Shown: positions 8,214-52,200, numbered from the stretch's first letter. The stretch is DNA of 64,000 nt from Clostridia bacterium (GCA_900759015.1 CAAEUE010000002.1:47332-111331), one strand, 5' to 3'. Translations and numbers: made by a program. The notes: generated by a model not told the origin, from the letters alone.

Positions 8214-8265
8214 GGGATTCCAAGGAACGTCCCCAAATCCCTGTTGGAAAGAACTCCCAAATCCC
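8214..8265 (-). repeat. GGGATTT/GGACGTTCC dispersed repeat, locus 1 (two units)
   Basis: gggattccaaggaacgtccccaaatccctgttggaaagaactcccaaatccc, between the typA stop and the trmR start. Confidence 0.9.
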
Positions 8266-8284
8266 TATCCTATTTTATCTTATT

Positions 8285-10111
8285 TTAGTCTTCTTTAACT
8301 TTTCTTCTTGCTTCTCTTTCTCTAGTTTTTGTGTCTAGTATTTTCTTTCTTAATCTAATACTCTTTGGAGTTACTTCTACTAATTCATCATCTTGAATAA
8401 ACTCTATAGCTTTTTCTAATGACATTTGAATTGGTGGTACTAATCTTAATGCATCATCAGAACCTGAAGCTCTTGTATTTGTTAAATGTTTTTCTTTACA
8501 TACATTTATTGCTAAATCTTCTGGTCTAGAATTTATACCTACAATCATACCTTCATATACTTCTACACCTGGTCCAATGAATAAATCACCTTTATCTTGT
8601 GCATTGTATAATCCATATGTTATAGATGTACCTGCTTCGAAAGCTACAATTGTTCCTCTTGTTCTTGCAACAACTGTTCCTTTATATGGCTCATAATCTT
8701 CGAATACATGGTTCATAACACCATTACCTTTTGTATCTGTCATGAATTCTGTTCTATAACCAATTAAACCTCTTGAAGGTATTTTAAATTCTACTTTAGT
8801 ATGACCTGCTTCTGCTGGTTCCATATTTATCATTTCTGCTTTTCTTTTTCCTAATTTTTCTATAACACTACCAATACAATCATCTGGTACATTTACTACA
8901 AGTCTTTCAATTGGTTCACATTTTACACCATTGATTTCTTTTATAATAACTTTTGGTCTAGATACTAAAAATTCAAACCCTTCTCTTCTCATTGTTTCGA
9001 TTAATACAGATAGATGTAATTCTCCACGTCCAGCTACTTCAAATGAATCTGCAGAATCTGTTTCACTTACACGTAAACTTACATTTCTTTCAAGCTCTTT
9101 AAATAATCTATCTCTTAAATGTCTTGAAGTAATGAATTTTCCTTCTTTACCAGCTAAAGGTCCATCATTTACACTAAATGTCATAGTAACTGTTGGTTCG
9201 TCTATGTCTACAAAATCTATTTTTTCTGGGTGTTCTACATCACATATTGTTTCACCAATATTAATGTCTGGAATACCAGATAATTCGATAATATCACCTG
9301 CACCTATTTCTTGAACTTCTACTTTTTTAAGTCCCATATGTGTGTAAATTTTTCCTATTCTTGCATTTTCCATTTTTCCATCTTTTTTGCAAATAACTAC
9401 TGGATCATTAACTTTTAATATTCCTCTTTCTAGTCTACCTATAGCCATTCTTCCTATGAATTCATCATAGTCAATATTAGATACTAGCATTTGAACAGGT
9501 CCTTCTTCATCACAAGCAGGTGGATTTATTTCTTTTATAATTGTTTCAAATATACAATTTATATTATCACTGCTATCTTCCATGTTCATTTTAGCAATTC
9601 CGTTTTTAGCTGAAGCATAAATTACTGGGAATTCTAATTGTTCATCTGTTGCATCTAATTCTATAAATAATTCTAGTACTTGGTCTAATACCTTTGATGG
9701 ATTTGCTCCTGGTCTATCTATTTTATTTATTACAACTATTGGTTTTAAATTTAAAGATAATGCTTTCTTTAAAACCTCTCTTGTTTGAGGCATTGGTCCT
9801 TCGAACGCATCAACTAATAATAAAACTCCATCAACAGTTTTTAAAACTCTTTCTACTTCTCCACCAAAGTCAGCATGTCCTGGTGTATCTACTATATTTA
9901 TTTTTACACCGTTATACATAACTGCTGTATTTTTAGAAAGAATTGTTATTCCCCTTTCTTTTTCTAATGCATTAGAATCCATAATTCTCTCGTCAACTTT
10001 TTCGTTGTCTCTAAATACATGGCTTTGTTTTAATAATGCATCTACTAATGTTGTTTTACCATGGTCTACGTGTGCTATGATTGCTATGTTTCTAATATTT
10101 TCGTTTATCAT
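8285..10111 (-). CDS. typA: Translational GTPase TypA/BipA
   Basis: AHVDHGKTT, DTPGHADF and NKIDR G-motifs; 608 aa with an EF-G-like domain layout. Confidence 0.95.
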   Translation of the reverse strand: MINENIRNIAIIAHVDHGKTTLVDALLKQSHVFRDNEKVDERIMDSNALEKERGITILSKNTAVMYNGVKINIVDTPGHADFGGEVERVLKTVDGVLLLVDAFEGPMPQTREVLKKALSLNLKPIVVINKIDRPGANPSKVLDQVLELFIELDATDEQLEFPVIYASAKNGIAKMNMEDSSDNINCIFETIIKEINPPACDEEGPVQMLVSNIDYDEFIGRMAIGRLERGILKVNDPVVICKKDGKMENARIGKIYTHMGLKKVEVQEIGAGDIIELSGIPDINIGETICDVEHPEKIDFVDIDEPTVTMTFSVNDGPLAGKEGKFITSRHLRDRLFKELERNVSLRVSETDSADSFEVAGRGELHLSVLIETMRREGFEFLVSRPKVIIKEINGVKCEPIERLVVNVPDDCIGSVIEKLGKRKAEMINMEPAEAGHTKVEFKIPSRGLIGYRTEFMTDTKGNGVMNHVFEDYEPYKGTVVARTRGTIVAFEAGTSITYGLYNAQDKGDLFIGPGVEVYEGMIVGINSRPEDLAINVCKEKHLTNTRASGSDDALRLVPPIQMSLEKAIEFIQDDELVEVTPKSIRLRKKILDTKTREREARRKVKED

Positions 10112-10124
10112 TTTTATTACTCCT

Positions 10125-11210
10125 TTATTCTTTATATTCGTTTGATGTATTTTCTAATTCTCTTATTGATAATTCGATTCTTTTATTTGCTAAATCCATA
10201 TCAATTATTTTTGCATTTACTTTTTGTCCTATTCTTAATTCTTCTTCTGGTTTTGTTATTTTTCTTTCACATATTTGGGAAAGATGTACTAACCCTTCAA
10301 TTCCTGGCTCTAGTTCTACAAAAGCTCCAAAAGGCATCATTTTAACTACTTTTACTGTTAAAATATCATTTATATTATATTTACCTTCTACAGATTTCCA
10401 AGGATCTGGCCCCTTTTCTGCATAAGATAATTTAATTCTTTTATTTTCTTTATCTACATCTATTGCTATTACATCGATTACTTGTCCTACTTTTAAAATC
10501 TCGTTAGGTGGTGTATTTCTATTCCATGTAATTTCTGAAATATGTAATAAACCTTGTACTGCTCCTAAATCTACAAAAGCACCATATGTACTTATACTTG
10601 TAACTTTTCCTTTATATTTTTTACCTACTTCTGCTTCATTCCAAAATTCGTCTATTTTCTTATTTTTTTCTTCATCTAAAATTGCTTTTATTGACCCTAT
10701 TATTCTTCTAGGTCTAAATTTGCATTCTATTAATCTAAATCTAACTACTTTATCTTTATAATCTTTTATGTTTTCACATCTTGTTATTCCAGATAAAGAA
10801 ATTGGAATAAATATATTGTATCCTTCTTTTGAAATTATAAATCCTTTGTCTGTGATTTCTGTAATTTTTTCCTCTAAAACTTCATTATTCTTAAATTTTT
10901 CTTCTAGCTCTTTTTGAGCTTCTTTCATTTTATATCTTTTAGTAGAAAGTAATACATTACCTTCACCATCATTCATTTTTATTACTTCTGCTGTTATTTT
11001 ATCTCCAACTTTTAATTCTTTATTAGGGTCTGCAGCTTCATTGTATGAATATTCATTTCTTGGAATTATTCCATCTGCTTTATACCCGATATCTATAATT
11101 ACTTCGCCTTTTTTATTTATATTTATTATTGTTCCTTCTATTGTTTCTTTTACATTTATATTTTTCATTGATTCTTCTATCATTTGTTCAAAATTTAATT
11201 GTTCTGACAT
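10125..11210 (-). CDS. 30S ribosomal protein S1-like protein (four S1 domains)
   Basis: Repeated S1 OB-fold modules (for example GKVTSISTYGAFVDLG and VKMMPFGAFVEL). Confidence 0.85.
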   Translation of the reverse strand: MSEQLNFEQMIEESMKNINVKETIEGTIININKKGEVIIDIGYKADGIIPRNEYSYNEAADPNKELKVGDKITAEVIKMNDGEGNVLLSTKRYKMKEAQKELEEKFKNNEVLEEKITEITDKGFIISKEGYNIFIPISLSGITRCENIKDYKDKVVRFRLIECKFRPRRIIGSIKAILDEEKNKKIDEFWNEAEVGKKYKGKVTSISTYGAFVDLGAVQGLLHISEITWNRNTPPNEILKVGQVIDVIAIDVDKENKRIKLSYAEKGPDPWKSVEGKYNINDILTVKVVKMMPFGAFVELEPGIEGLVHLSQICERKITKPEEELRIGQKVNAKIIDMDLANKRIELSIRELENTSNEYKE

Positions 11211-11231
11211 AATTTCACCTTCCTAAATCTT

Positions 11232-11246
11232 TGTTACATTGTAACA
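11232..11246. promoter_or_regulatory. Perfect 7-1-7 palindrome TGTTACAtTGTAACA in the leader of the S1-like gene
   Basis: Seen directly, 22-36 nt upstream of the start codon. Confidence 0.3.
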
Positions 11247-11331
11247 TCCTCTTTCGTTTGGTTTATCTTTATAAATGGCGTTTTTCATAAATGAAAAACG
11301 CCTATTCGCAGTAAACTGACAATATTATATA

Positions 11332-11937
11332 TTATTGTTTGATATTTGTCAACATAATTATGTTATCCATTATCTCTTTACTTACTTGCTCTAGCTCCTC
11401 TTTCGAAGGCTTTTTAGTAACTCTATCACTATAATCTAATGGCTTTCCATAATTAACATATACCTTTTTAAAAGGCTTTTCTCCTCCTACTATTCCAACT
11501 GGTTGCACCTTTGCACCTGTTTGTAGTACGAAAAATGCTACTCCTTCTTTTACACTTTCTCCTTTTTCTAGTCCATTTCTTGTTCCTTCTGGGAACATAG
11601 CTATACTTTCTTTATTTTTTAGAGCTTTTAATGTTGTTTTTAAAGCTGCTATTTCTTTATTATCTCTTTTAACATATATAGCATCAAATACATAACCTAA
11701 AAATTTTAAAAATTTATTTTTAGTTAATTCCTCTTTTGCCATAAACCTAACATGTCTTCCTGCTGTTACTACAATTAAAGGCGGATCCAAATAACTTCTA
11801 TGGTTTCCACAATATATTACTGGACCTTCCTTTGGAATATTTTCTTTTCCTATAACTTTTAACCTATATACAACTTTGCAATATAGATATATTGCTGTTC
11901 TAACTATTACTCTTAATATTCTTTTTATAATGTTCAT
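11332..11937 (-). CDS. plsC: 1-acyl-sn-glycerol-3-phosphate acyltransferase
   Basis: NHRSYLDP (HX4D) and FPEGTR motifs. Confidence 0.9.
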   Translation of the reverse strand: MNIIKRILRVIVRTAIYLYCKVVYRLKVIGKENIPKEGPVIYCGNHRSYLDPPLIVVTAGRHVRFMAKEELTKNKFLKFLGYVFDAIYVKRDNKEIAALKTTLKALKNKESIAMFPEGTRNGLEKGESVKEGVAFFVLQTGAKVQPVGIVGGEKPFKKVYVNYGKPLDYSDRVTKKPSKEELEQVSKEIMDNIIMLTNIKQ

Positions 11938-12628
11938 TTCTATTCTCCTTAGTTTTTTGTTTTATTATTTTTATTATTTTATGCTTAATTTTATTTACGC
12001 TTGATTTACTTGAATCTACATATATTGCATCTGGAGCTTTTTTTAATGCTCCTACTTTTTTATTCATATCATTCTTGTCTCTTTCCATTATTGATTGTAA
12101 GACTTCTTCAAATGATTGATTAATTCCATTTCTTTTATTTTGTCTGCATCTTCTTTTAGCTCGCTCTATTGGTGTTGCATCCAAATATATTTTTACTTTT
12201 GCCTCTGGAAAAACTACAGTAGTAATATCTCGTCCTTCCATTATAATGTTCTTGCCTTCTTTTAACCATTCATAGCCAATTTTTCTTTCTAATTTTGTTA
12301 TTTTATCTCTAACTCCTAAAATACTAGATGTTTTAGAAACTATTCCTGTTACTTCTGGAGTTCTGATTTTGCCAGTTACATCTTCTCCGTTTAAAAATAC
12401 TGACTGCTTATTATTCTTATTTTTTAAGTTTATATCTATTTTTTCTAATATTTCTTCTACTTTTTCTTCATCAGTAATATCTATATTATTTTGAAGTACT
12501 GCTAAAGCATGGCATCTATATAGCATTCCTGTATCTATACTTACTAACCCCAAATCTTTAGCGACTAATTTTGTTATTGTGCCTTTCCCTGAACCTGCTG
12601 GTCCATCTATTGCAACTATATATGACAT
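11900..12628 (-). CDS. cmk: Cytidylate kinase
   Basis: IAIDGPAGSGKGT P-loop. Start at the ATG after GGTGGA. The basic C-terminal tail overlaps plsC by 38 nt. Confidence 0.9.
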   Translation of the reverse strand: MSYIVAIDGPAGSGKGTITKLVAKDLGLVSIDTGMLYRCHALAVLQNNIDITDEEKVEEILEKIDINLKNKNNKQSVFLNGEDVTGKIRTPEVTGIVSKTSSILGVRDKITKLERKIGYEWLKEGKNIIMEGRDITTVVFPEAKVKIYLDATPIERAKRRCRQNKRNGINQSFEEVLQSIMERDKNDMNKKVGALKKAPDAIYVDSSKSSVNKIKHKIIKIIKQKTKENRNEHYKKNIKSNS

Positions 12629-12642
12629 TTTTCCACCATCCA

Positions 12643-13482
12643 CTAATTATTTTCTTCTTTATTAATATGTATATCTTTTATTATTATTTTAATTGTTTGT
12701 ACTCGCATTGTTGTTAATTTTTCAATTTCTTTTATTATTTTGTTTTTAAAATTATCTACAATATTTCTAACATTTCCACCATATTCAACACTAAGTTCTA
12801 TATATACATATGGACCTTCTGGTTGATTATCTATCCTTGTTCTTATTATATTGTATATATTTGGATCTTTTTTTGCTATATATTCTATAATTTGTCTAAA
12901 TACTGTATCTGATATTGTAAAATTTCCTAAATAACTAAAAGTAGGTCTTATTATTGATTTTTCTGATATATATGGTTTATCATTTCTACCTTTAAATTTA
13001 AAAATTTGAAGTGGATCTAATATAAATCCCGAAAAATCTTTTTTTATCTCAAATGTTGGTACTGGTATAACATGTTTTCCCTCTGTTACCCTACTTCTTC
13101 TAGCTTCTTGAATTTCCTCTGGTGTTGCAATTTCATCTATGTATATAATTTTTTCTATTGGTGGTAAACCTATATTTGCAGCTATTTTATTTACCATACC
13201 ATCAGATGTTCCTAATATTAGAATTGATTCTGGCTTATATTTTTCTATCGCTTTCCTTATTTCATCTTTTTGTTCTTGTTTTAAAAATAGTGCTTTTTTT
13301 ACAGTTTCTATTTTGGTTGGTGCTTTTTTAGCAGATTCACCTGCGATTATCTCATTATCATTTATAAAAAGCCCATCATCTATTATATAATGAATATTAT
13401 TTTCATTCGCAACCATTTGTGCTCTATAGCTTTTTCCAGTTCCAGATGGCCCTACAAAAGCATACACTTTAATATTGTTCAT
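12643..13482 (-). CDS. P-loop NTPase fused to an Asp23/Gls24-like C-terminal domain
   Basis: GPSGTGKS Walker A. The C-terminal 100 aa resemble alkaline-shock Asp23-type domains. Confidence 0.6.
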   Translation of the reverse strand: MNNIKVYAFVGPSGTGKSYRAQMVANENNIHYIIDDGLFINDNEIIAGESAKKAPTKIETVKKALFLKQEQKDEIRKAIEKYKPESILILGTSDGMVNKIAANIGLPPIEKIIYIDEIATPEEIQEARRSRVTEGKHVIPVPTFEIKKDFSGFILDPLQIFKFKGRNDKPYISEKSIIRPTFSYLGNFTISDTVFRQIIEYIAKKDPNIYNIIRTRIDNQPEGPYVYIELSVEYGGNVRNIVDNFKNKIIKEIEKLTTMRVQTIKIIIKDIHINKEENN

Positions 13483-13587
13483 AGTTACTCCTCTTATTTT
13501 TCTTCTTATTAATATTTATACTTAATTCTTGTATATTATACCTCATTATTTTTCTGTTTTCAATTATATTATACAATTAGTGCTAAT

Positions 13588-13616
13588 TTGATTCTTTATG
13601 TAAATTATGCTATAAT
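13588..13616 (+). promoter_or_regulatory. Sigma-A promoter of membrane-protein cassette 1
   Basis: TTGATT, 17-nt spacer, TGcTATAAT. The architecture is conserved with cassette 2. Confidence 0.6.
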
Positions 13617-13695
13617 TAAGTTTACAAAAGCGCTTCACACAATCTCTACACTATGAGATTTGCTTTATAAAAAACTTCTTGGGAAATGGAGAAAT

Positions 13696-14019: not shown

Positions 14020-14045
14020 CCACTGCAACAAACAAGAAGTTTTTT

Positions 14046-14071
14046 AGTCAGACTATGGTCTGACTTTTTTC
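14046..14071 (+). terminator. Intrinsic terminator of cassette 1
   Basis: Stem agtcagac/gtctgact with a tatg loop and a T-run. Confidence 0.8.
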
Positions 14072-14124
14072 TTTTTTACTATATTAGATAATAGTTACAT
14101 ATATTTTACCAATAATTATACTTT

Positions 14125-14510: not shown

Positions 14511-14543
14511 CCAATTAACCCAGCAACCAACAAGAAGTTTTTT

Positions 14544-14652: not shown

Positions 14653-14653
14653 G

Positions 14654-16294: not shown

Positions 16295-16342
16295 GGGATT
16301 TTAAGAACGTCCCCAAATCCCTCTGGGGAACGCCCCAAATCC
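16295..16342 (-). repeat. GGGATTT/GGACGTTCC dispersed repeat, locus 2 (two units)
   Basis: gggattttaagaacgtccccaaatccctctggggaacgccccaaatcc, 10 nt after the glgP stop. Confidence 0.9.
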
Positions 16343-16351
16343 TTGTTAATT

Positions 16352-22365: not shown

Positions 22366-23202
22366 ATGAAATCATTTTGTATCAAGACAAATAATAAAAA
22401 GATAATAAAATATCTACTAAATAACTTTTCTTTTCCTAACACATATATTTCCATAAGAAAATTTAAAATATATGAAAATGTAATTATCCATTACACTGGT
22501 AGTTTAGATAATCTTCCTAATTTTTATAATAATCTTTCTAACACACTTGTTTCTTTAATAATAAAATTTTATGAAGCCAAATTGTTAAAATCAATTATAA
22601 AATCTAATTATTTTTATTTTTCAGAATCTGAACAGGATATTGTGTTAGATAAATGTTTAACTTACCTTAAAGATACATCTTCTGTTGAATATCAAGTAAG
22701 GATTGAACATATATATATTGCTACACTTAAATATATAACAAATAATAAATCTATGATTTTAACTGGTTTTATTAATTTTAGGCTTTCAAATTATATGAAG
22801 ATTTTAGATTACATTGTAGACACATTTGTAAACGAATTAGTTGTAGATAGAGAATATAAAGAATTCATTAATTTATTAAAATCCTACGTAAATTCTAAAC
22901 CATCTAATATTAATACTGTACATTTCATTTATAAAAATACAGATTCTGTTATACTTGATAGTAATTATAAAAAAATTCCATTTACAGATGATATAGCTAA
23001 CTTAAATTATATTTCTGATGTTTCTTTTTCAGAGAATGATATTTCTTTAAATACCTTACTTACTCTTTTGCCTCAAAAGATAATAATTCATCTTGTTAAA
23101 GAATCTGATGAATTTATAAAAACCCTAATATGTATTTTTGAAAATAGGATAGAACTTTTATCGGGATCAGGGGACGTTCCTAAAAATCCCTATTTCAAAT
23201 AG
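22366..23202 (+). CDS. Hypothetical protein, possibly YtxC-like sporulation protein
   Basis: ATG after AAAGGAG. The size and position next to gpr suggest a sporulation role. The last 13 codons lie inside repeat locus 3. Confidence 0.4.
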   Translation: MKSFCIKTNNKKIIKYLLNNFSFPNTYISIRKFKIYENVIIHYTGSLDNLPNFYNNLSNTLVSLIIKFYEAKLLKSIIKSNYFYFSESEQDIVLDKCLTYLKDTSSVEYQVRIEHIYIATLKYITNNKSMILTGFINFRLSNYMKILDYIVDTFVNELVVDREYKEFINLLKSYVNSKPSNINTVHFIYKNTDSVILDSNYKKIPFTDDIANLNYISDVSFSENDISLNTLLTLLPQKIIIHLVKESDEFIKTLICIFENRIELLSGSGDVPKNPYFK

Positions 23203-23208
23203 GGATTT
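23163..23208 (+). repeat. GGGATTT/GGACGTTCC dispersed repeat, locus 3
   Basis: gggatcaggggacgttcctaaaaatccctatttcaaatagggattttt. It contains the TAG stop of the upstream ORF. Confidence 0.85.
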
Positions 23209-23249: not shown

Positions 23250-23278
23250 CTTGTACCTAAAACAAAGAGTGGAAAAAA

Positions 23279-23303
23279 GGAACATCTCCATTTTCATAAT
23301 CCC
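23279..23303 (-). repeat. Degenerate copy of the dispersed repeat, abutting the gpr stop
   Basis: ggaacatctccattttcataatccc. On the minus strand it reads TAGGGATTatgaaaatGGAGATGTTCC. Confidence 0.45.
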
Positions 23304-24238
23304 TATAGACTCATATTAATACCTCTTGCAACTACATCTTTCATGTTTTCTACTAATGAATCTATTTCTTTTGGTGTAACTATAAAATTAAAATCTTTTG
23401 GTATTAATGCTTCTTTTATTTCTAAATAATTATCCTCTTCTTTTAATTTATTTAAATATTCATTAGATTCTGCTTTTTCTTGTAATTTTTCTATAAAAAC
23501 ATCTAAACAATCATTTACCACAACTGCAGTTTCTACAACTGTTGGTATCCCTATTGCAATTACTGGAACTCCTAATGTATTTACTGTTAACTCTTTCCTA
23601 GCATTATCTACACCTGCCCCTGGAACAATTCCTGTATCTGCTAATTGAATTGTACTACTTATTCTTTCCATACTTCTAGAAGCCAAACTGTCTATAACGA
23701 TAACTAGTTTAGGCTTTACATTGTCTACTATTCCTTTTAAAATTTCTGCTGTTTCTATTCCTGTCGTTCCTAAAACACCTGGTGAAATTGCACTTACTGG
23801 TCTTGTATTTTTGTCTAAATATTGTGGTACATATTTTAATAGATGTCTTGTAATATCTATCTCATTTATTACTTTTGGACCTAATGCATCTGGTGTAACA
23901 TATATATTTCCTAAACCTACAACTAATATTTCTTGTTCTTTGCTTACATATTCATCAATCATCTTTTTTAATTCTTCACATAATATCTCACTTGCTTTTT
24001 GAATTTCTTCTTCTCCCATATATTTCATGTTTTTCATATCTATTGTTACATAATTTCCTTTTACTTTTCCTAAAGCTCTTTCGCCTTGTTCATTCATTAT
24101 CTTAACTCGTGTAACTTTTATATTGTTATTTATTTGTTCTTCATTTGCTTCTATTCCATCAATCTCATTTTCTATATTATTTGCTTTTTTATACAAATCT
24201 TTTCTTTCATCAGCAAGGTCTGTTCTAAAATCCAACAT
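23303..24238 (-). CDS. gpr: GPR endopeptidase (spore germination protease)
   Basis: N-terminus MLDFRTDLADE and internal GLGN..TPDALGP, typical of GPR. Confidence 0.9.
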   Translation of the reverse strand: MLDFRTDLADERKDLYKKANNIENEIDGIEANEEQINNNIKVTRVKIMNEQGERALGKVKGNYVTIDMKNMKYMGEEEIQKASEILCEELKKMIDEYVSKEQEILVVGLGNIYVTPDALGPKVINEIDITRHLLKYVPQYLDKNTRPVSAISPGVLGTTGIETAEILKGIVDNVKPKLVIVIDSLASRSMERISSTIQLADTGIVPGAGVDNARKELTVNTLGVPVIAIGIPTVVETAVVVNDCLDVFIEKLQEKAESNEYLNKLKEEDNYLEIKEALIPKDFNFIVTPKEIDSLVENMKDVVARGINMSL

Positions 24239-26440: not shown

Positions 26441-27464
26441 TTACTTTGAGCAATTATTACATAAAATTGTTTCTAAACCAATATTTAAATCAATCTTACC
26501 AACCTTATAATTATAGTCTAAATCTATCAGTTCTTTTATAATATTAGAAATCTCCAAATCTGTAAAGCTTTTTGCTTGCATTTTATATTTATTTACTAAA
26601 AACATTTGATTAGGTTTTAAATTTAAAGATTTTGCTATATCTAGTTTATATCTTTCTGCTATTTTTGTAAAATACAATTTTTTAAAATGGTTATATAATG
26701 TTATTAATATTTTTTGAATTGGCTCTTTATTATAAAGCAAATTATTTAGTTCTTCCAATGCTAGTTTTATTTGTTTCTTTCCTAGATAATCAGTTAAGTT
26801 AAATATAATGGCTTGTGTTTGTTTAGTACACAATAAATCTATATCTGCTTTATTGATTGTTCCCCCTTCGCCAGCATATTCTATTAATTTTCTTATCTCA
26901 TTAATTAAGTCTTGCATATTTTGTCCACATTGTTCTATTAAATATTGCAATGTATTTTCTGCTACATTTACTTTATATGCATTTGCTATTGACTTTAATC
27001 TTCTTATAATTTGGTTTGGTTTTTGATATGTAAATTCACATACCTCACCATTTTTTTCTAATACCTTATATAGTTTTTGTTTTTCTACATTTTCTTCTAC
27101 AAATACTAAAATTACACTTTCATTAATTTCATCAATATTATTTTCTATGTATTCTGCAACACTAGTTTTAATTTTAGCAAGCTCTGGATTCTTTCTCTTT
27201 CCCTCTTTTTTTAAGATTTCCGAATTTCGTACAAGAATTAATTTTTTTTGATAGCCAAAAGCTGGAGTTTGTATATCTGCTATTAGTTCTGAAATATTCG
27301 TTTCATCTATACTAATATAATTAATTCCATTTATACATTCTCCAAAATTTTTTCTTATTTTCTTTACTATTGACTCTAGTAAAAATTTTTCTTCACCATA
27401 TAAAACATATATACTTTTTAAAATCCCTTGTCCGAAGTTCTTTTTCTAACTCTTCTATTAACAT
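26441..27464 (-). pseudogene. holA: DNA polymerase III delta subunit, frameshifted near the 5' end
   Basis: The start (MLIEELEKELRT) is in one frame. The body (GILKSIYVLYGEEKFLLES ... to the track ORF 26441..26950) is in the +1 frame and has no in-frame ATG/GTG/TTG until 26950. Confidence 0.75.
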
Positions 27465-27480: not shown

Positions 27481-27507
27481 GGGATTTAAGGAACGTCCCC
27501 AAATCCC
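27481..27507 (-). repeat. GGGATTT/GGACGTTCC dispersed repeat, locus 4 (canonical single hairpin)
   Basis: gggatttaaggaacgtccccaaatccc, between the ruvC stop and the holA start. Confidence 0.9.
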
Positions 27508-27527
27508 TATTCCTATTACTATTCATA

Positions 27528-28020
27528 TTATAATTTAAATTGAGATGAAAACTTAGATGAATGTGCATGGCATATTGCTATTGCCATACTATCTGTTATA
27601 TCATCCAATTTTGGTAATTTCTCTGTATTTAATATCATTTTTACCATTCTTTGCACTTGCATTTTATCTGCTCTACCATATCCTGTTACTGCTTGCTTTA
27701 TTTGTAATGGTGTATACTCGAATATATCTAATTTATTTATTCTTGCTGTTATTAATATTACTCCTCTTGCCTGAGCAACATTAATAGCTGTTTTTGCATT
27801 ATTATTAAAAAATAGTTCTTCTATAGACATCGCATCTGGTTTATATGTATTTATTATATTATTTAAATCTGTGTAAATCTTCTCTAGCCTTAATGGAAAA
27901 GATTCACCAGCTTCTGTTAAAATTGCACCAGACGTTTCTAATTTAAATTTATTTCCTATATAATCTATTATGCTATACCCGTGTTATTGCAAACCCAGGG
28001 TCAATTCCTAATATTCTCAT
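27528..28020 (-). pseudogene. ruvC: Holliday junction resolvase RuvC, frameshifted after codon 13
   Basis: MRILGIDPGFAIT then stop. GYSIIDYIGNKFKLETSGAI...DAMSIEELFF continues in the +1 frame into track ORF 27528..27830. The ATG overlaps the TGA of the upstream gene (ATGA). Confidence 0.8.
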
Positions 28021-32586: not shown

Positions 32587-33429
32587 TTAATTCCTCTCCT
32601 TTAAATAGTTTATAACTTCTTCTATACTTTCCTGTGGTGTTGAAGCACCTGCCATCACACCTATTTTATTTATATTTGCAAAATTCTCATTATATAACTC
32701 TGATACTTCTTCTATCTTAATGGCATTTTTACAATTCTTTTGTGCAATTTCATATAATTTGTTTGTATTAGAACTTTTTTTGCCTCCAATTATGACCATA
32801 TATTCTACATCTTTAGATATTTTCTCTGTCTCTTTTTGTCTACTTTCTGTAGCATTACAAATGCCATTATATATTTCTAGTTGTGTCTTTATATTTTCTT
32901 TTAAATATTGTTCTATTTCTAAAAATTTTTGTAAATTATATGTTGTTTGTGTTACTACTGCCAATTTTTCTTTTTTATTTAATTCAGGAAGTCTTTGTTT
33001 TAACTGTTCTAAATTTTCTATAACTTCACCATTAGTGCAAAAACTAAAAGTTCCCATAACTTCTGCATGAGATTTTTCTCCAATTACTAAAATATAATAA
33101 TCTTTATTTGACAATTCTTTTGCCAAATCATGAATTTTTAGTACTTTTGGACATGTACAATCTATTAATTCTATATTATTTTTCTTTGCATATTCATAAA
33201 CTTCTTTTTTTACACCATGAGCTCTTATTAGTACTCTTTCTTTGGCTTCTTTTATATCAGTTATTATTCTAAGTCCATTTGCTTTTAATTTATTTAGTAC
33301 TTGATTATTATGTAATAAATCTCCTAAACATTCTATATTCTCTGTATTTTTTAATTCCTCTTTAGCAGTCTCTACTGCTCGTGTAATTCCGTTGCAAAAG
33401 CCTGCTGTTTTTCCTAATATTATTTCCAT
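32587..33429 (-). CDS. ispH: 4-hydroxy-3-methylbut-2-enyl diphosphate reductase
   Basis: GFCNGITRAV, CPKV and NGICNAT cluster-cysteine motifs, and SSNTNKL. Confidence 0.95.
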   Translation of the reverse strand: MEIILGKTAGFCNGITRAVETAKEELKNTENIECLGDLLHNNQVLNKLKANGLRIITDIKEAKERVLIRAHGVKKEVYEYAKKNNIELIDCTCPKVLKIHDLAKELSNKDYYILVIGEKSHAEVMGTFSFCTNGEVIENLEQLKQRLPELNKKEKLAVVTQTTYNLQKFLEIEQYLKENIKTQLEIYNGICNATESRQKETEKISKDVEYMVIIGGKKSSNTNKLYEIAQKNCKNAIKIEEVSELYNENFANINKIGVMAGASTPQESIEEVINYLKERN

Positions 33430-33497: not shown

Positions 33498-33577
33498 AAT
33501 AATTTGACATAACTTTGTAATATTTTTTAGTAGAAAATTACGCTTTTGCTAATTACAACAATTTCATTTGACATAAT

Positions 33578-33654
33578 GAAAAAAGTGGCTTCGTCACATG
33601 TACAGATTGCTTCGCAATCGCACGGTCATAAGTAACTTAACCTTGTTGCTTCAG
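33578..33654. repeat. Duplicated noncoding element, copy B
   Basis: Homolog of 14576..14652. Hairpin 33600..33623 carries one compensatory pair change. Confidence 0.6.
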
Positions 33655-33719
33655 AAAAATCTAGCGCTTTTTCCTATGCAATAAAAAAAGACGCAAAAAT
33701 AATTACGCCTTTTTAAATT

Positions 33720-34009
33720 TTAATTCTTACAAAAAAATCTTTTTATAAAGCTTTCATGTTCTATTTTAATAAGTTGATTATTCTTTTCTTCTTCTATTTG
33801 CTCGTTATCCTTTCTGTCAAATATATGCTCCAATTTTTCTTCATTTAATTTTCTTTCTTCTTCATCTTTTTTCTAAATTCTTCTTTTTCTTCTTCAGTTG
33901 CCCAATAATCTCTATATATTAAAGCCAAGATATTATTAGCTTCTATTTCTATTCCAAATTTCATATAAGCTGGCAAATTTAGCCTTTCATATTGTCCTTT
34001 GTATTTCAT
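33720..34009 (-). pseudogene. Frameshifted short paralog of the 24330..24740 gene
   Basis: AAGAGG RBS and ATG 34009. The first frame stops at 33836. The frame reopens at an A6 run (plus-strand T6, 33867..33872), and one extra A would restore a roughly 96-aa ORF ending ...ESFIKRFFCKN. Confidence 0.6.
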
Positions 34010-34086: not shown

Positions 34087-34133
34087 GGGATTTGAGGACA
34101 TTTTTCGGGATTTTGGGACGTTCTTAAAATCCC
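34087..34133 (+). repeat. GGGATTT/GGACGTTCC dispersed repeat, locus 5 (two units; left inverted repeat of the cassette)
   Basis: gggatttgaggacatttttcgggattttgggacgttcttaaaatccc. Confidence 0.9.
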
Positions 34134-35383: not shown

Positions 35384-35447
35384 CCATCTCTTAGCTAGGC
35401 GAATATCTTATATTCGTCTGGCTAAAATTCTTTATTAACCTCAAAAA

Positions 35448-35487
35448 AGGTCAGGATAGAATGTCTAAATTCTCTCCTGACCTTTTT
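35448..35487. terminator. Bidirectional terminator
   Basis: Stem aggtcagga.../...tcctgacct flanked by an A-run and a T-run. Confidence 0.7.
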
Positions 35488-35502: not shown

Positions 35503-35570
35503 GGGATTTAAGGAACGTCCCTAGATCCCGAAGAATGTCCTCAAATCCCGAGGGAACGTCTCCAAATCCC
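35503..35570 (-). repeat. GGGATTT/GGACGTTCC dispersed repeat, locus 6 (three units; right inverted repeat of the cassette)
   Basis: gggatttaaggaacgtccctagatcccgaagaatgtcctcaaatcccgagggaacgtctccaaatccc, 8 nt after the dnaJ stop. Confidence 0.9.
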
Positions 35571-45134: not shown

Positions 45135-45338
45135 AAAAAAACTTACCCCGCCTTAGCCGTAAGAAGTTTAGAAATTTTAAGAGCCTACTCGCGTAGGTGG
45201 GTGTCTTGTTAAATGCTTGTGGGCTTCTTACTACTAAATAGAAGTGTAAGCTTGCACGCCACATCTAAAGGCGGACTCCCTTATAAAATTTGTTGGTTCT
45301 AAAATTCCAGTCTACACGCACTATGCAGGGAAGTTTTT
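45135..45338 (-). ncRNA. ssrS: Structured RNA of about 204 nt, candidate 6S RNA
   Basis: G+C-richer ORF-free block. The 5' and 3' ends pair (AAAAACUU+CCCUGC with GCGGGG(U)AAGUUUUU). Three G-U pairs and a GCGA tetraloop hairpin exist only on the minus strand. Promoter at 45365..45393. Confidence 0.5.
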
Positions 45339-46323: not shown

Positions 46324-46356
46324 TTAGTCCTTTTTATTACATATTATGTACAACTT

Positions 46357-47640
46357 CTAATATTTTACTCTATCTTCTACACTTGTAGTTTGCCCATCTA
46401 GAAAATGATACTTATATTTTTTTCTATCCTCCATAGGAACAGGATTTTTTTCAATTTCTTCTGTAAATGGATTAATATATCCATACACATATTCTGGTGA
46501 AATATATCCAGGGTGTTGTGTATCTGCTTCTGGAAAATCAGAATTCCAAATAGGTTCTTCTGAATTTTTATTAAATAACCTTTTAGGCAACATAATAATT
46601 ATTTTATGATCTGGCACCATTAATCCCATAAAATATTTATCTTCTTCAAAATTTCCGTGAGCTGTTCTTTTTAATACATTTATACAATCTTCTCCCTGAG
46701 TTGAAGAATGTAAGCCTTCCTTATATATACTATCTCTAATCTCATGAGTACCTTCTGTTGATCTCAAGTGATTGGATGCATTTATATAATGTGTTATGAA
46801 GAAATTATCTTTATCTTCGTACAAACTTTCCATTTGTTTTCCGTATTTTATTGAATAATTACCATCTTCACGCAAATACTCTCGTCCCGCATATAGTAAG
46901 TCTGTTACATCTCCTGACGCAATGCATTCTAAATCTTCATCACAAGTCTTTCTTAAACCTTCGAATAAAAATCTTTTAGGAATTTTATATTTTCCATCTT
47001 CTACTTGTTTTGGGTTCCTTAATTCTTCTAATAATCTTTCCGCATTATTTATAGCTATTTTTATAAAGGTTTTATCAGTATTCGTTCTATCTTTCACTTC
47101 TTCTAGTTTTGGCAAAAATTTTTCTATATATTTTTCATATACTTCTGTATCGTTAGATTTATCAAATTTAATATATCTTATATCACGCTCAATTAACTCT
47201 TTCATAAATTCTGGGTTTTTAGCCAAATCCGGATTTTCGTTAACTACAAAGTTTATTGCTATATCTTCATTTTCCATTTTTTCTAATTTTTTCTTTGCAT
47301 TTTCTGGATTTAATGTCTGTTCATCTAAATCTAATTTTCTTTTTTCTAACCTTAAATTTGAAATCTGCTCATTTAATTCTGCTAGTTTTTTACTATTATC
47401 AGCTGAAGTTTTTAATTCTTGTTTATACTGTTTAGAAAAAGTTCGCATAAAAAATTCTATTATTGGATTTCTTTTCCTATAGATAGAAAGACCTCTATTC
47501 TCTTGATTTAATCTTAATATAGCCTCTTTAGTTTCTTGCATTTCTTCTTCTAACTTTATTTTTCTTGTTTGCAAGCCTTCGCTTTTTTGGATTATTTGCA
47601 TTAATTCATTCTTTGAATTTTCTAATACTTCATTTAGCAT
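46357..47640 (-). CDS. Hypothetical 427-aa protein (coiled-coil N-terminus, globular C-terminus)
   Basis: Long ORF with no recognisable motif. Confidence 0.65.
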   Translation of the reverse strand: MLNEVLENSKNELMQIIQKSEGLQTRKIKLEEEMQETKEAILRLNQENRGLSIYRKRNPIIEFFMRTFSKQYKQELKTSADNSKKLAELNEQISNLRLEKRKLDLDEQTLNPENAKKKLEKMENEDIAINFVVNENPDLAKNPEFMKELIERDIRYIKFDKSNDTEVYEKYIEKFLPKLEEVKDRTNTDKTFIKIAINNAERLLEELRNPKQVEDGKYKIPKRFLFEGLRKTCDEDLECIASGDVTDLLYAGREYLREDGNYSIKYGKQMESLYEDKDNFFITHYINASNHLRSTEGTHEIRDSIYKEGLHSSTQGEDCINVLKRTAHGNFEEDKYFMGLMVPDHKIIIMLPKRLFNKNSEEPIWNSDFPEADTQHPGYISPEYVYGYINPFTEEIEKNPVPMEDRKKYKYHFLDGQTTSVEDRVKY

Positions 47641-47858
47641 AAGTTTCTCCTTATTTTTTATTATATAGATTTTTTCTATACAACATATTAAATTCCTTAG
47701 CGATAAAATTTTCTTTCTTCATAATTATAACATTAATATTTTTATTGTGATATATTTTCACAAAAAATTGTAAAAATTTTCTTTCTTGTTTTTTTACATA
47801 TGCTGGTAATCAAAAAGAAAAACGGTACAAGTTCAACTTGCACCGTTCGTTAGAATTG

Positions 47859-48284
47859 TTACTCGCTTTTAGAATATGTATAGTGACACTCAATATATGT
47901 TAGAGCAAAAAACATTACTGGAAATTTAACCATTTCTGCCCAATTTTTCACCTCAAATATCACTCCTATGAAAAAAGCAAGAATAAAATAAACTACGACT
48001 ATTGTAATAACACTATCTATTATAATCATCTTCATATTAGTTTTATTTTTTTCTGTTAATCTTGTCTTAAAATTAATAATCTTAGCCTGATCTTGCTGTG
48101 TTTCATCAGAATATATTTTATAGTTAAAAATTATATTAGCTGCAATATTAGATACACTGCATAAAATAGATATAATTAACCAATTTTTATTCCCGTACCA
48201 TAGCTTTAGTATTACAGCTGAAATAAAAAAAGCATACACCGCATAAAGTATTAACCGAGCTACATTCTTTAAATTTTCTTTCAT
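47859..48284 (-). CDS. Membrane protein (4 TM)
   Basis: Hydrophobic segments. Followed by the terminator ACGGTGCAAGT/ACTTGTACCGT plus a T-run at about 47820..47850. Confidence 0.6.
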   Translation of the reverse strand: MKENLKNVARLILYAVYAFFISAVILKLWYGNKNWLIISILCSVSNIAANIIFNYKIYSDETQQDQAKIINFKTRLTEKNKTNMKMIIIDSVITIVVVYFILAFFIGVIFEVKNWAEMVKFPVMFFALTYIECHYTYSKSE

Positions 48285-48465
48285 TTCCTAATCCTCCTAA
48301 ATTCTAGAATTCATTTTTATACCATTATTTCCATGATATAAATTACTTATAAAACATACTTTTGAAATAATAGCATATTAGTACTTACATTTCAACAATA
48401 AAAGTTATTAAAAATCGTTTATACTAAAAAGATACATAGCAACTTTCTATGTATCTTTACTTAAT

Positions 48466-48873
48466 TTATTTAGAATATTTTTCAAATATATCATAAAATT
48501 CTTTGTTTACTTTTTTTAATGATATTGGTCTCATATTAGAATTTGTGAAACAATGTTTTGTTTCGCCTATTCCTAAAAGTTTTCCATTTGCTTTATTTCT
48601 AATTTCGTATTTCATACTTAATTTTATACCATCAAATTCAGATATAGCTACTTTTACAGCTATTGTATCTCCAAATTTTGCAGGATACTTATATTTGTAA
48701 TTAACTTCTAAAACCGGAATCATTATTCCATTATCTTCTATTTTTTTATATGGTAATCCCATTTCATCTAATAAATATATTCTCGCTTCTTCCATATATC
48801 TTATATAATTTGAATGATGAACCACATTCATTCCGTCTAATTCATAATAATTTATTCCTCTTTCAAATTCCAT
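48466..48873 (-). CDS. Acyl-CoA thioesterase (4HBT/YbgC family hotdog fold)
   Basis: DGMNVVHHSNYIRYMEEAR motif. Start at the ATG after GGAGGAG. Confidence 0.8.
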   Translation of the reverse strand: MEFERGINYYELDGMNVVHHSNYIRYMEEARIYLLDEMGLPYKKIEDNGIMIPVLEVNYKYKYPAKFGDTIAVKVAISEFDGIKLSMKYEIRNKANGKLLGIGETKHCFTNSNMRPISLKKVNKEFYDIFEKYSK

Positions 48874-48888
48874 TATTTCTCCTCCTTC

Positions 48889-48915
48889 GGGATTTAGGGA
48901 CGTTCCTTTTTTCCC
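48889..48915 (+). repeat. GGGATTT/GGACGTTCC dispersed repeat, locus 7
   Basis: gggatttagggacgttccttttttccc fills the gap between the DJ-1 stop and the thioesterase RBS. Confidence 0.85.
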
Positions 48916-49469
48916 TATAATAAATTCCAAAGCATTCCATCACTTACTTCTTTAGAATTATGACCTAAAACATCTAATAGTTTATATGCAAATAGCATTG
49001 CTGTTGCAGGTCCTCTACTTGTTATAATATTTCCATCTACTTCTACTAAATTTTCGGTGTAATTTGCTTTCTTTAATAAATCCTCAAATCCTTTACCTGG
49101 ATATGATGTTATATTTTTTCCTGCTTCTATGTTTGCTTTAGATAAAACAATCGCTGGTGATGCACATATTGCACCAATATATTTGTTACTATCTTGACTA
49201 AATTCTTTTAAAGTTTCTATTAACAATTTATCTTCAGCTAGATTATATGCTCCTGGCAAACCACCTGGTAATACAATCATATCATAATCTTTAATAGATT
49301 CATCTATTACTTTATCTGCCAATATTTCTATATTGTGCGAACTTTTTATTTCTCTTCCATTAACACTTACAATATCACATTTGATATTTGCTCTTCTCAT
49401 AACATCTACTACGGTAAGAGCTTCAATCTCTTCAGTTCCATCAGCAATCATTACAGCTACTTTTTTCAT
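48915..49469 (-). CDS. DJ-1/PfpI family protein
   Basis: GAICASPAIVL nucleophile-elbow cysteine motif; 184 aa. Confidence 0.85.
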   Translation of the reverse strand: MKKVAVMIADGTEEIEALTVVDVMRRANIKCDIVSVNGREIKSSHNIEILADKVIDESIKDYDMIVLPGGLPGAYNLAEDKLLIETLKEFSQDSNKYIGAICASPAIVLSKANIEAGKNITSYPGKGFEDLLKKANYTENLVEVDGNIITSRGPATAMLFAYKLLDVLGHNSKEVSDGMLWNLL

Positions 49470-49495
49470 AATCTTCCCTTCCTTTCTCTTTATTA

Positions 49496-49939
49496 CTATA
49501 TCATATCTTTTAAAATTTTAACAATATTCTGTTTTGAACAATTACTATATAATTTTCCATTTATTTCTACATTTGGAGCAAAACCACACTTTTTAAAACA
49601 ATTTTTTGTGTCTAATGTAATTTTTCCATCTTTACTTGTATGGCCTTCTTTTACATTAAATTCTTTTTCAATTTCTTTTATTATATCTAATGAACCTTTC
49701 TTTAAACAGTTTGGTCCTTTACATACAATTACTATATTTTCGCCTTGTTTTTCTAGTTTAATATTTTTCTTATATTTTAAAAGCACCATTATCTCTTTTT
49801 CAGAAATATCTAGATACTTAGCAATTTCTATAATATCATTACTAGATACAAATCCATTCATCTCTTGAAGTTCATCTAGAATTGGATTTAGGCTTTCTTT
49901 AGTTTTTGTATACGCTTCAATAACTTCTTTATTTGTCAT
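49496..49939 (-). CDS. NuoE-like thioredoxin-fold [2Fe-2S] ferredoxin
   Basis: CKGPNC ... CFKKCGFAPNV cysteine pattern and a NuoE-like N-terminal helical domain. Confidence 0.7.
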   Translation of the reverse strand: MTNKEVIEAYTKTKESLNPILDELQEMNGFVSSNDIIEIAKYLDISEKEIMVLLKYKKNIKLEKQGENIVIVCKGPNCLKKGSLDIIKEIEKEFNVKEGHTSKDGKITLDTKNCFKKCGFAPNVEINGKLYSNCSKQNIVKILKDMI

Positions 49940-49980
49940 ATTCTTTACTTCCTTCCATATACATATAACAGAGGTGTATT

Positions 49981-50898
49981 ATGAAATTTCTTTTTAATTA
50001 CATTAAAGGTATCCTTATTGGCGCTGGCGCAATAATACCTGGTATAAGCAGTGGGGTATTATGTGTTATTTTTGGTATTTACGAAACTCTTTTAAATAGT
50101 ATATTAAACTTTTTTAAAGATTGGAAGAATAATATTAAATTTCTTACTCCTTTTATATTAGGTGGTCTTACTGGAATAATTATCTTTAGCAATATTATTC
50201 TCTTTTTATTCGAAAGATATCCAGAAATTACATCATTTACCTTTATTGGTCTTATCTTAGGCTGTATTCCTTCTATATTTAAAATTTGTAATTCAAAAGA
50301 AAAATTCAAATTACGATATATAATATTTTTTATAGTATCATTTATTATTGCTATTTTATTGCTTTTATTAGAAAATAAAATGTCTAGTAATGTTGGAATA
50401 TATTATGGTGATAACTATAGTTTTGAATTTTTAATACTAGCTGGCTTTTTAATGAGTATTGGCGTTGTGGTTCCTGGTGTTAGTAGTACTGTTATTTTAA
50501 TGCTACTTGGAGTTTATGAAACATATCTTTATGCAGTATCTATAATGAATATGAGAATATTACTTCCTATGGGAATTGGTTTGCTTATTGGTGGATTCTT
50601 ATGTATGAAATTAATACAATTTTTACTTAATAAATATCATTCACAAACATATTATTCTATATTAGGATTTGTTTTGGGCTCTGTGTTCATTCTTCTCCCT
50701 AACATAAGTTTTAATACAACAGGATTATTATCAATTATATTTTGCATTATCGGATTTTTAATCGGATTTTTTAGTCGGTGGCTAGTCGAGACTCTGGGAC
50801 CTTCCAGGATTTGGGACCTTCCGGGATTTTGGGGCCTTCCGGGATTTTGGGGCCTTCCGGGATTTGGGGACCTTCCGGGATTTGGGGACGGTGGTTAA
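49981..50898 (+). CDS. DUF368 family membrane protein (PopT-like polyprenyl-phosphate transporter family)
   Basis: Duplicated IPGISSGV / VPGVSSTV motifs and about 8 TM helices. The last 34 or so codons are read from the tandem repeat array. Confidence 0.8.
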   Translation: MKFLFNYIKGILIGAGAIIPGISSGVLCVIFGIYETLLNSILNFFKDWKNNIKFLTPFILGGLTGIIIFSNIILFLFERYPEITSFTFIGLILGCIPSIFKICNSKEKFKLRYIIFFIVSFIIAILLLLLENKMSSNVGIYYGDNYSFEFLILAGFLMSIGVVVPGVSSTVILMLLGVYETYLYAVSIMNMRILLPMGIGLLIGGFLCMKLIQFLLNKYHSQTYYSILGFVLGSVFILLPNISFNTTGLLSIIFCIIGFLIGFFSRWLVETLGPSRIWDLPGFWGLPGFWGLPGFGDLPGFGDGG

Positions 50899-50903
50899 AT
50901 CCC
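50796..50903 (+). repeat. Tandem array (5 units of 17-18 nt plus a terminal AAATCCC) of the dispersed repeat, locus 8
   Basis: gggaccttccaggattt gggaccttccgggatttt ggggccttccgggatttt ggggccttccgggattt ggggaccttccgggattt ggggacggtggttaaatccc. Confidence 0.95.
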
Positions 50904-51072
50904 GATTTATATTAATTTTACTTGCGACATATCTCACCATTTCTATAGTTACTTAATATTTATGAGATTACTTATATAAATATAGCCATAAAAAAGTCTT
51001 AATTTAAATTTCTAAAGCTATTATATCTTTTAGTAAATTTATTTTAAGACTTTTATTTCACAATATCTATAT

Positions 51073-52080
51073 TTAATCTCTTTCAGAATAATCTGGTTTA
51101 ACCGTTGTTTCTGGTAAAGATTTTACTTCTGCATTCATAAGTTTTAATACTCTTCTACCTAAAAACGGAATTTTACCAATTCTATGAACTACAAAATTTT
51201 TTAATCTTCCATTTGCTTCATGTAATTTATCATATTTTTGCTTTAATGCTTCGTTTTCTTCTTCTAATCTAGTAATTTCTCCTTGTCCCCTATTAATTAC
51301 ATCAGTTAAAATTTTCTTTTCTCCTTCATGTTGATCATGTAATTCTTTTGCAGTATTTGCTATTATTTCTTCTACTTCTTCTTCTGAATATTTTCCAGAA
51401 CTCTTATTTCTGACTGTAGCCTCTGCAACTTCTCTTTCGAATGCCATTGAATCCATTAATTCTTTTATAAACTGATTCGGTTTGTCTTCTTTTCTAAATT
51501 CTGCTAATAAATCTTTATATAAATCTGGTTTCTTTCCATGTAAAGTTATAGAAATACTATCTTCATATGTAGTTATATCAACATCTGTTTCCGCTTTAGA
51601 AGAAACTTCTTCCATTCTAGAAATATTATTTATATCACTTTTTGAAAACGTTAAATATAAATATGCATTGTCTTTTTCTCCTGCACAAGCATTTGTCTTT
51701 ATATTTTGTGACCATAATTTTTTTAAAAGTTCTTCTAAGTCCGGTTCTCCTTCTGCAAAAGTATGAGCAAGTTTAGCTTGTTCTTCCGGCTCCAAACTTA
51801 ATATATATTCTGGTTTAATATTATAAAATTTTCCTAAATTTCCTGTTATTCTTTTATTTAACAAACCTTCTAGAACATCAAAACTTTCTTGTTCTTCTAA
51901 CAAATCATGAACTTTATTTGTTCGTATTAAAACATCTTGCAATTTACTTATTGTTTGTTCATCGAAAACCTCTTCTAATTCTTTTCCACCTATTAATTCT
52001 TTTAATTCGCTTTGATCTTCTTTTCCTTCTTGTATTTTTTTAACTTCAGCTAATATTTTTTCTTTATCCAGACTAAACAT
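51073..52080 (-). CDS. Hypothetical 335-aa acidic protein with a coiled-coil C-terminus
   Basis: AAGGTGA RBS. No recognisable motif. Confidence 0.65.
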   Translation of the reverse strand: MFSLDKEKILAEVKKIQEGKEDQSELKELIGGKELEEVFDEQTISKLQDVLIRTNKVHDLLEEQESFDVLEGLLNKRITGNLGKFYNIKPEYILSLEPEEQAKLAHTFAEGEPDLEELLKKLWSQNIKTNACAGEKDNAYLYLTFSKSDINNISRMEEVSSKAETDVDITTYEDSISITLHGKKPDLYKDLLAEFRKEDKPNQFIKELMDSMAFEREVAEATVRNKSSGKYSEEEVEEIIANTAKELHDQHEGEKKILTDVINRGQGEITRLEEENEALKQKYDKLHEANGRLKNFVVHRIGKIPFLGRRVLKLMNAEVKSLPETTVKPDYSERD

Positions 52081-52113
52081 ATTATCACCTTATCTTTAGT
52101 TTTTTCTTCTATA

Positions 52114-52132
52114 GGGATTTAAGGAACGTCCC
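52114..52132 (-). repeat. GGGATTT/GGACGTTCC dispersed repeat, locus 9 (single unit)
   Basis: gggatttaaggaacgtccc, directly continuous with the octamer array. Confidence 0.8.
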
Positions 52133-52200
52133 TATTTCCCTATTTCCCTATTTCCCTATTTTCCTATTTCCCTATTTTTCTATTTCTAAATTCCTATTTT
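52130..52200. repeat. 8-nt microsatellite (CCCTATTT)n, about 7 good copies then decay
   Basis: ccctattt x4, tcctattt, ccctattt, ttctattt, then degenerate. It spans the U32 stop codon region. Confidence 0.9.

Follow-up and report, generated by a model that had tools for sequence, protein, structure and literature searches.

A dispersed family of palindromic repeats at gene ends in uncultured gut Clostridia

Introduction

Repetitive extragenic palindromic (REP) and REPIN elements with RAYT transposases are known from Enterobacteria and Pseudomonas (PMC3116915, PMC5581495, PMC3479197). The 5′ foot of the REP stem has a conserved GT(A/G)G for recognition and cleavage by the RAYT (PMC3479197), and Group 1 RAYTs occur in Clostridia (PMC5581495). 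In this study, we analysed a 64,000-nucleotide (nt) stretch of DNA from a Clostridia bacterium (GCA_900759015.1, CAAEUE010000002.1:47332-111331; hereafter the window, numbered from its first letter), in which a short hairpin repeat recurs at gene ends between positions 8214 and 52200. The repeat had been noticed in a reading of the sequence alone (the sequence-only reading), which compared it with REP, BIME and MITE elements. Like REP/REPIN elements, which are short imperfect palindromes of roughly 20-40 nt, it is present in many extragenic copies at gene ends, and it shares with them lineage-specific sequence families, inverted doublets and stable residence across strains. REPs have also been proposed as mRNA 3′ stabilisers or terminator-like elements. 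Unlike REP/REPIN elements, the repeat has no GTAG head, and no RAYT was found in the DNA searched. Its clusters are direct arrays of truncated units that end in one closed unit, its copies often overlap or supply stop codons, and its host is a low-GC Clostridium.

Other described repeats share some of these features. The pneumococcal BOX element has the structure boxA-boxB(n)-boxC, with modules of 45-59 nt of three distinct types, and to our knowledge no transposase is known for it. BOX is also a Firmicute intergenic repeat with strain-variable internal tandem modules and long stem-loops, but it has no sequence similarity to the present repeat and no single fixed closing arm. Mycobacterial MIRUs likewise form intercistronic arrays of strain-variable length that interplay with stop and start codons, but their units are 40-100 nt long and are not closed as hairpins. 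Rickettsia palindromic elements (RPEs) are about 100-150 nt long, lie mostly inside genes and add peptide as in-frame palindromic repeats. The present repeat does so through an 18-nt array that contributes up to 24 aa to a VCA0040-like protein, whereas its translation is exceptional (three of ten loci) and confined to the extreme 3′ end. Neisseria DNA-uptake sequences are 10-12 nt long and common inside genes, and their inverted pairs form intrinsic terminators. As in these pairs, the present repeat provides a hairpin stem after genes, and some copies have a U-run and occupy terminator slots; however, uptake sequences are far denser, no core match of the present repeat lies in the body of an open reading frame (ORF), and most window copies have no U-run. 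We conclude that the repeat belongs to an ordinary kind of element and that its sequence is new. It is probably a new REP-like, lineage-specific family of short interspersed palindromic repeats that has been retained where a stem-loop is tolerated or useful.

Results and Discussion

The repeat is enriched in the window and placed at gene ends

The window has a G+C content of 27-28%, and its minus strand holds most of the genes. GGGATTT matched 29 times in the window against 8.7 expected. In a Hamming scan, the 18-mer GGGATTTGGGGACGTTCC gave 14 matches with up to three mismatches, against 0.01 expected, and the core GGGACGTTCC gave 13 matches with up to one mismatch, against 0.2 expected, all within the nine loci named by the sequence-only reading. 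These nine loci and a tenth, degenerate copy were all present where they had been placed, and the window scans found no locus beyond the ten. The tenth copy had been given as 23279-23303; it exists, but is better delimited as 23269-23305 on the minus strand (TAGGGATTATGAAAATGGAGATGTTCCTTTTTTCCAC). Chance, low complexity or an assembly artefact is a negligible explanation for these counts. Nothing speaks for it save that all data are metagenome assemblies, whereas zero shuffles reached the observed counts and different samples, assembled independently, gave the same loci dozens of times.

For placement, we used the gene calls of public contigs that contain the window, together with their Pfam labels. 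All ten loci lay in spacers or in the final ~110 nt of an ORF, positions that make up 22% of the window (P ~3e-7), and 0/13 core matches were inside ORF bodies. Both the enrichment and the placement bear out the proposed dispersed hairpin repeat family at gene ends, and roughly one window spacer in six carries the element. A DNA uptake sequence was rejected, with 13/13 core matches at gene ends or in spacers and a density of ~1 locus per 6.4 kb. After typA, glgP, ruvC and dnaJ, the first unit begins 7-20 nt past the stop codon. Three further loci overlap a stop codon or are translated, namely those of ytxC (23163), DJ-1 (48889) and the VCA0040-like ORF (50796-50903), and the locus at 34087-34133 is 90 nt past the cupin stop. 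The claim of gene-end placement held, with these distances correcting the earlier description of most copies as within about 10 nt of a stop codon. Relative to the adjacent upstream gene, the element was in the gene-sense orientation at 8/10 loci, against the earlier count of seven in nine.

Across the family, 97 arrays from element-bearing loci and the window were classified with a simple ORF-based gene map that reproduced the public calls. Here the orientation bias was modest. Among co-directional spacers, 29 were sense-only against 15 that were antisense-only (P ~0.05), and 10 contained an inverted pair; 15 further arrays were in convergent spacers and 5 in divergent ones. An inverted pair was present in 10/74 occupied spacers, singles and direct arrays being commoner. 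Among the 60 gene-sense copies, 32 began between -9 and +10 nt from the stop codon, and in 22 the ORF entered the element and terminated on a stop carried by it, in the form TA-GGG, GGGAT-TAG/TAA/TGA or CCT-TAA-ATCCC. Antisense copies adjoined the ribosome-binding site of the downstream gene.

The unit folds asymmetrically and is highly conserved

The closed unit is 27-28 nt long and has the structure GGGATTT-GGGGAC-G-TTCC-TT-AAATCCC. The sequence-only reading had proposed a stem of 7 bp with an inner stem of 3 bp; instead, the computed fold of the G-rich strand contains 12 continuous pairs, two of them G·U, around a 3-nt loop (-15.3 kcal/mol). The C-rich strand has A·C mismatches and reaches only -9.8 kcal/mol in its computed fold. 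In 91/92 copies collected from many genomes, the G-rich strand was the more stable strand, with G·T pairs. This asymmetry did not differ between sense and antisense copies (P=0.47). The asymmetry is therefore inherent in the element and shows no tuning to transcription direction, a pattern consistent with units copied from a master sequence or with one DNA strand being recognised in hairpin form.

Units start with (T)A-GGGATT or C-GGGATT, and the flanking dinucleotides were TA..TA in just 7/59 copies and otherwise variable. A covariation of the flanking base pair (A..T vs C..G) appeared as a trend too weak for a claim. The MAFFT alignment displaced the right arm of 28-nt units, and the pair counts did not draw on this alignment. 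In a second subtype, TTAAATCCC is replaced by TTTTTTCCC, as at 48889-48915. Arrays, bipartite forms and doublets each fold as a single long hairpin, down to -45 kcal/mol. A miniature inverted-repeat transposable element (MITE), one of the earlier comparisons, was rejected: the whole element is one 27-nt palindrome, its flanks are variable, with TA..TA at the frequency given above, and no insertion sequence or transposase was seen in the window or in 659 kb of element-bearing loci.

The core GGGACGTTCC is conserved far past pairing needs, with 13 invariant alignment columns that include loop bases. Such conservation, together with a regular spacing of about two helical turns in direct arrays, might indicate that a dedicated protein of the lineage binds or processes the repeat, either an RNA-binding protein or RNase that acts on the G-strand transcript, or a DNA-binding protein with tandem sites at a 20-23-bp period. 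However, DNA copied recently would be equally conserved, the array periods range from 18 to 23 nt, and copies occur in both orientations and are sometimes translated. No candidate protein was found, and we consider such a protein site quite improbable.

Arrays vary in length between strains

Arrays consist of truncated units (left arm, loop, inner right arm and a 0-5-nt spacer) stacked 5′ of one closed unit, with periods of 18-23 nt. In Tandem Repeats Finder, the top score (148) went to an 18-nt array, with 95 for the 8-nt array and 71-73 for that of dnaJ; each of these lies at an element. Two known repeat classes were rejected on this structure. A bacterial interspersed mosaic element (BIME) has alternating units, whereas in the clusters here truncated units follow one another head to tail, separated by 0-5 nt and with a single closing arm. 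CRISPR arrays were rejected on the same 0-5-nt spacers and on the window gene lists, in which no cas domains were present.

Strains were compared as independent assemblies of the same species, with TypA identical or 99% identical. Downstream of typA, strains had one or two units, or else a doublet of another subtype, and downstream of glgP they had 1, 2, 3, 4 or 5 units. The VCA0040-like protein was 287, 300, 305 or 311 aa long, and the reading frame was kept in all observed alleles. These three loci confirm copy-number polymorphism between strains. One to five units per locus had been claimed, which did not hold at 50796-50903, where the array has 5-6 units. In addition, (GGGAAATA)n at 52141-52193 varied from 5 to 7 copies, and a copy of the repeat just outside the window carries (GGAAAAA)n of variable length among strains.

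Tandem stutters of 10, 6 and 8 nt were present immediately 5′ of the left arm at 8266-8296, 27506-27529 and 52129-52186, respectively. Their presence at three loci suggests a general tendency to duplicate sequence on the 5′ side of the hairpin. Separately, a P-type cation ATPase gene (3-1928, plus strand) is missing in some same-species strains (L120 vs L121), and this indel borders the repeat copy just outside the window that carries (GGAAAAA)n.

Multi-copy matches come from low-GC gut Clostridia

The distribution of the unit was scanned in one genome per species. Multi-copy matches were found only in 20 low-GC gut assemblies named 'Clostridium sp.' or Clostridia (metagenome-assembled genomes, MAGs, from human, mouse and rabbit), and all other matches were single and in higher-GC genomes. 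Enrichment thus extends past the window, with at least 20 species-level MAGs carrying the unit. Most relatives whose TypA is 80-84% identical do not have the canonical unit. Divergent variants are present in several of these lineages, among them one in which the GGGAA/TTCCC pair has changed to GAGAA/TTCTC in a compensatory manner, so the family extends beyond the canonical unit. Divergent variants were located in L212 (4153, 7714 and 2462) and in L185, L189, L190 and L191 (about 5285 and 14494), with the forms GGGAATTTAGGGACAGGTCTTATTTTCCC, GAGAAT...TTCTC with the compensatory change, and GATTTTRAGGGACAGTCCCTAGAAT. The position of the element differs between species: in L068 and L019 it comes after dnaK, and in the window species after dnaJ. 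A bipartite form, composed of a closed unit, 8 nt and an unclosed unit, was also present in other species, as were inverted doublets with a computed fold of -45 kcal/mol.

In a true REP/RAYT system, a single-copy Y1 (HUH) RAYT encoded elsewhere in the genome would recognise the G-strand hairpin as single-stranded DNA and copy it to new sites. The palindrome is short, extragenic and multi-copy, its imperfections are strand-specific in 91/92 copies, inverted doublets exist, and Group 1 RAYTs have been reported in Clostridia (PMC5581495). Against this, none of the 92 copies has a GTAG-type head, and the clusters are direct truncated repeats instead of alternating REPs. A RAYT or TnpA-REP-like protein was searched for in the window and in 659 kb of element-bearing loci: no Y1_Tnp domain was present among the window genes, and tblastn with IS200 TnpA and RAYT queries gave nothing at E<0.1 in the 659 kb, a result that is a lead and does not prove absence. 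Orientation relative to the local G-rich strand was also without bias (49 vs 46) in a test confounded by gene orientation. A true REP/RAYT system is possible but doubtful here. The suggested resemblance to REP and BIME elements stands for the overall behaviour, which is REP-like, and does not amount to membership of either class.

Other origins and identities were also examined. Among nine IMG/VR matches, eight were chance matches to high-GC phages and one was a low-GC contig, and a phage origin was rejected, as was a plasmid origin, with no plasmid match. In Rfam, only a 6S RNA passed the gathering score in the window, and matches at E values up to 10 around two of the loci were at chance level. 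No tRNA or tmRNA was found. A full-text literature search with four substrings of the unit returned only unrelated eukaryotic, primer or CRISPR-spacer matches. The view that this is not a described family was thus upheld by Rfam, the literature search and plasmids. Genes flanked by the repeat were rejected as partners, all being housekeeping genes or without a detectable domain.

The repeat shares slots with native hairpins and terminators

Relatives without the repeat usually have a unique hairpin directly after typA. A second shared slot lies upstream of a conserved non-coding block of ~115 nt. Here the window and L015 have unique hairpin-plus-T-run terminators, and in L030 and L103 a repeat unit sits on the T-run that the unique terminator uses in the window and L015. 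The block itself (33574-33688, minus strand) is structured, is located upstream of ispH (32587-33429) and has 82-84% identity with its counterparts in three other species (L030, L103 and L015). It contains three helices, including two GCGAAGC mini-hairpins, and its 3′ end is GUGGCGAAGCCAC followed by a U-run. It has no Rfam match and is a candidate small RNA or leader. In another species (L157), the slot after typA (2036-2170) contains a different long inverted repeat (GAGACAAAGAGGGACGGAGCATTTTTGTCTC ... GAGACAAAAATGCTCTGTCCCTCTTTGTCTC), which may belong to another repeat family.

A T-rich tail was present in 19/47 gene-sense closed copies family-wide (40% vs 15% background). It had been argued that no copy has a U-tract and that the repeats are therefore not classical terminators; this is correct for most window copies and does not extend to the family. 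A terminator scan of 22-42 kb flagged one copy (34107-34133), on the non-gene strand.

The repeat could then be the standard intrinsic terminator or attenuator stem of the lineage, kept uniform through gene conversion, that is, a functional signal and not selfish DNA. The replacement of unique terminator stems on a conserved T-run and after typA, the T-rich tails and the terminator-like call at 34107-34133 are consistent with this possibility. However, most window copies have no U-run and are located inside operons, immediately ahead of a ribosome-binding site (27481, 52114 and 48889), one third of copies are antisense, and some are translated. Moreover, a canonical terminator distinct from the repeat (35444-35487) lies downstream of the dnaJ array. 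We consider a standard terminator stem unlikely.

A probable family of REP-like repeats retained at gene ends

A family of REP-like repeats retained where a stem-loop is tolerated or useful is the explanation that we favour. The unit looks like non-autonomous or formerly mobile DNA. In many related species the same sequence is found at gene ends that are not orthologous, with either orientation and in some cases as inverted doublets. Most likely, it would have spread to these gene ends within one lineage; copying by a RAYT, discussed above, would be a specific version of this step. Copies would survive in two slots only, either just after a stop codon, where the element's own TAG, TAA or TGA often serves as the stop, or directly before the ribosome-binding site of the following gene. 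The element would be transcribed within the 3′ or intercistronic mRNA and would most likely act as a generic stem-loop that blocks 3′ exonucleases. With a U-run downstream, it could be the stem of an intrinsic terminator, and it occupies positions at which relatives have unique hairpins. Arrays would be secondary, most likely arising through slipped-strand duplication that copies the 5′ three-quarters of the unit beside a fixed closing arm. The same slippage would also yield the shorter stutters of 6-10 nt and hence length differences between strains.

Several observations weigh against this explanation. No mobilising protein was found among the window genes, in the 659 kb of element-bearing loci or among the repeat-bracketed genes. 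All ten loci were occupied in each of the strains fetched and no empty-site allele was present among them; no clean pair of empty and filled sites was thus seen that would demonstrate recent movement. The bias towards sense copies is just about 2:1, one third of copies being antisense, and the antisense copies among the 92 collected are without compensating changes, which indicates that individual copies are not tuned as mRNA structures. The TTTTTTCCC-closed subtype was enriched among antisense copies (10/25 vs 7/39), a pattern that the explanation does not cover. Finally, the separate canonical terminator after the dnaJ array means that the array is not needed there for termination.

An active gene-end cassette would jointly explain the polar arrays, the stutters on the 5′ side and the different subtypes found at one site in strains with 99% TypA identity. 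In such a lineage-specific cassette, a protein would recognise the G-strand hairpin, install it over native terminator stems and add units directionally beside the fixed closing arm. We regard an active cassette as a rather remote prospect.

REP-like repeats of this kind open no new category of system. They supply stop codons, and probably shape mRNA 3′ ends, in abundant uncultured Clostridia of the human gut. They also alter C-termini, with 13-24 residues added in two proteins here, which matters for the annotation of gut MAGs. The arrays are length markers for strain tracking in metagenomes and a likely cause of assembly breaks. Since native terminator hairpins of relatives and repeat copies of this species occupy the same slots, the old question of whether such repeats are selfish, useful or both becomes tractable here.

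Individual loci and neighbouring features

Downstream of typA and upstream of a methyltransferase gene, a closed hairpin unit (GGGATTTGGGGACGTTCCTTGGAATCCC) is located at 8214..8241 on the minus strand. Its 5′ side carries a truncated degenerate internal unit (GGGATTTGGGAGTTCTTTCCAACA; 8242..8265, minus strand), which is absent in strains L121 and L134-136. Downstream of glgP, the closed unit at 16295..16321 (minus strand) is accompanied by a truncated internal unit at 16322..16343 (minus strand), the strain-variable part, 9 nt after the glgP stop.

The closed unit at 23163..23190 (plus strand) is in the last codons of ytxC and encodes the tail ...SGSGDVPKNPYFK, with an additional GGGATTT fragment nearby at 23202-23208. 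It is faced across the convergent gene pair by the degenerate unit at 23269..23305 (minus strand), a variant with a 7-nt insertion that is closed by TTTTTTCC instead of TTAAATCCC and whose leading TAG is the gpr stop. A canonical single closed unit is found at 27481..27507 (minus strand), 20 nt after the ruvC stop and 3 nt before the holA ribosome-binding site.

One truncated and one closed unit at 34087..34133 (plus strand) are antisense to the flanking genes. On one side of this array is the terminator of the cupin gene itself (34233-34218), and on the other a strong promoter (34065-34037). The dnaJ array (35503..35570, minus strand) contains two truncated units and one closed unit and begins 7 nt after the dnaJ stop. 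The variant unit closed by TTTTTTCCC at 48889..48915 (plus strand) is antisense in its operon and invariant in 7 strains. It fills the entire 41-nt spacer from the DJ-1 stop, a TAG that overlaps the element by 1 nt, to the thioesterase ribosome-binding site.

At 50796..50903 (plus strand), an in-frame 18-nt array and a closed unit form the 3′ end of the VCA0040-like ORF (49981-50898). The array is translated as a (L/D)PGF(W/G)(G/D) tail, and the stop TAA lies within the closing arm. The last locus contains a closed unit with an altered left arm (GGGAAATAGGGACGTTCCTTAAATCCC) at 52114..52140 (minus strand), upstream of a gene for 335 aa. The (GGGAAATA)n stutter of 8 nt, at 52141..52193 (minus strand), lies between this unit and the U32 peptidase stop.

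Several features of the window stand apart from the repeat. The 6S RNA is at 45141-45334 on the minus strand (Rfam RF00013, 101.6 bits, full length). The holA gene (26441-27462, minus strand) has its ATG at 27462, and about 50 nt after it an A-run interrupts the reading frame, with the result that gene callers report a C-terminal fragment only. The interruption may be a genuine frameshift or may come from a homopolymer error in the assembly. The neighbouring ruvC (27528-27830) was called as just 100 aa. A small ORF downstream of the cupin gene (33845-34009, minus strand) encodes 54, 96 or 103 aa depending on the strain and holds a trinucleotide run of the (GAA)n type at 33855-33895.

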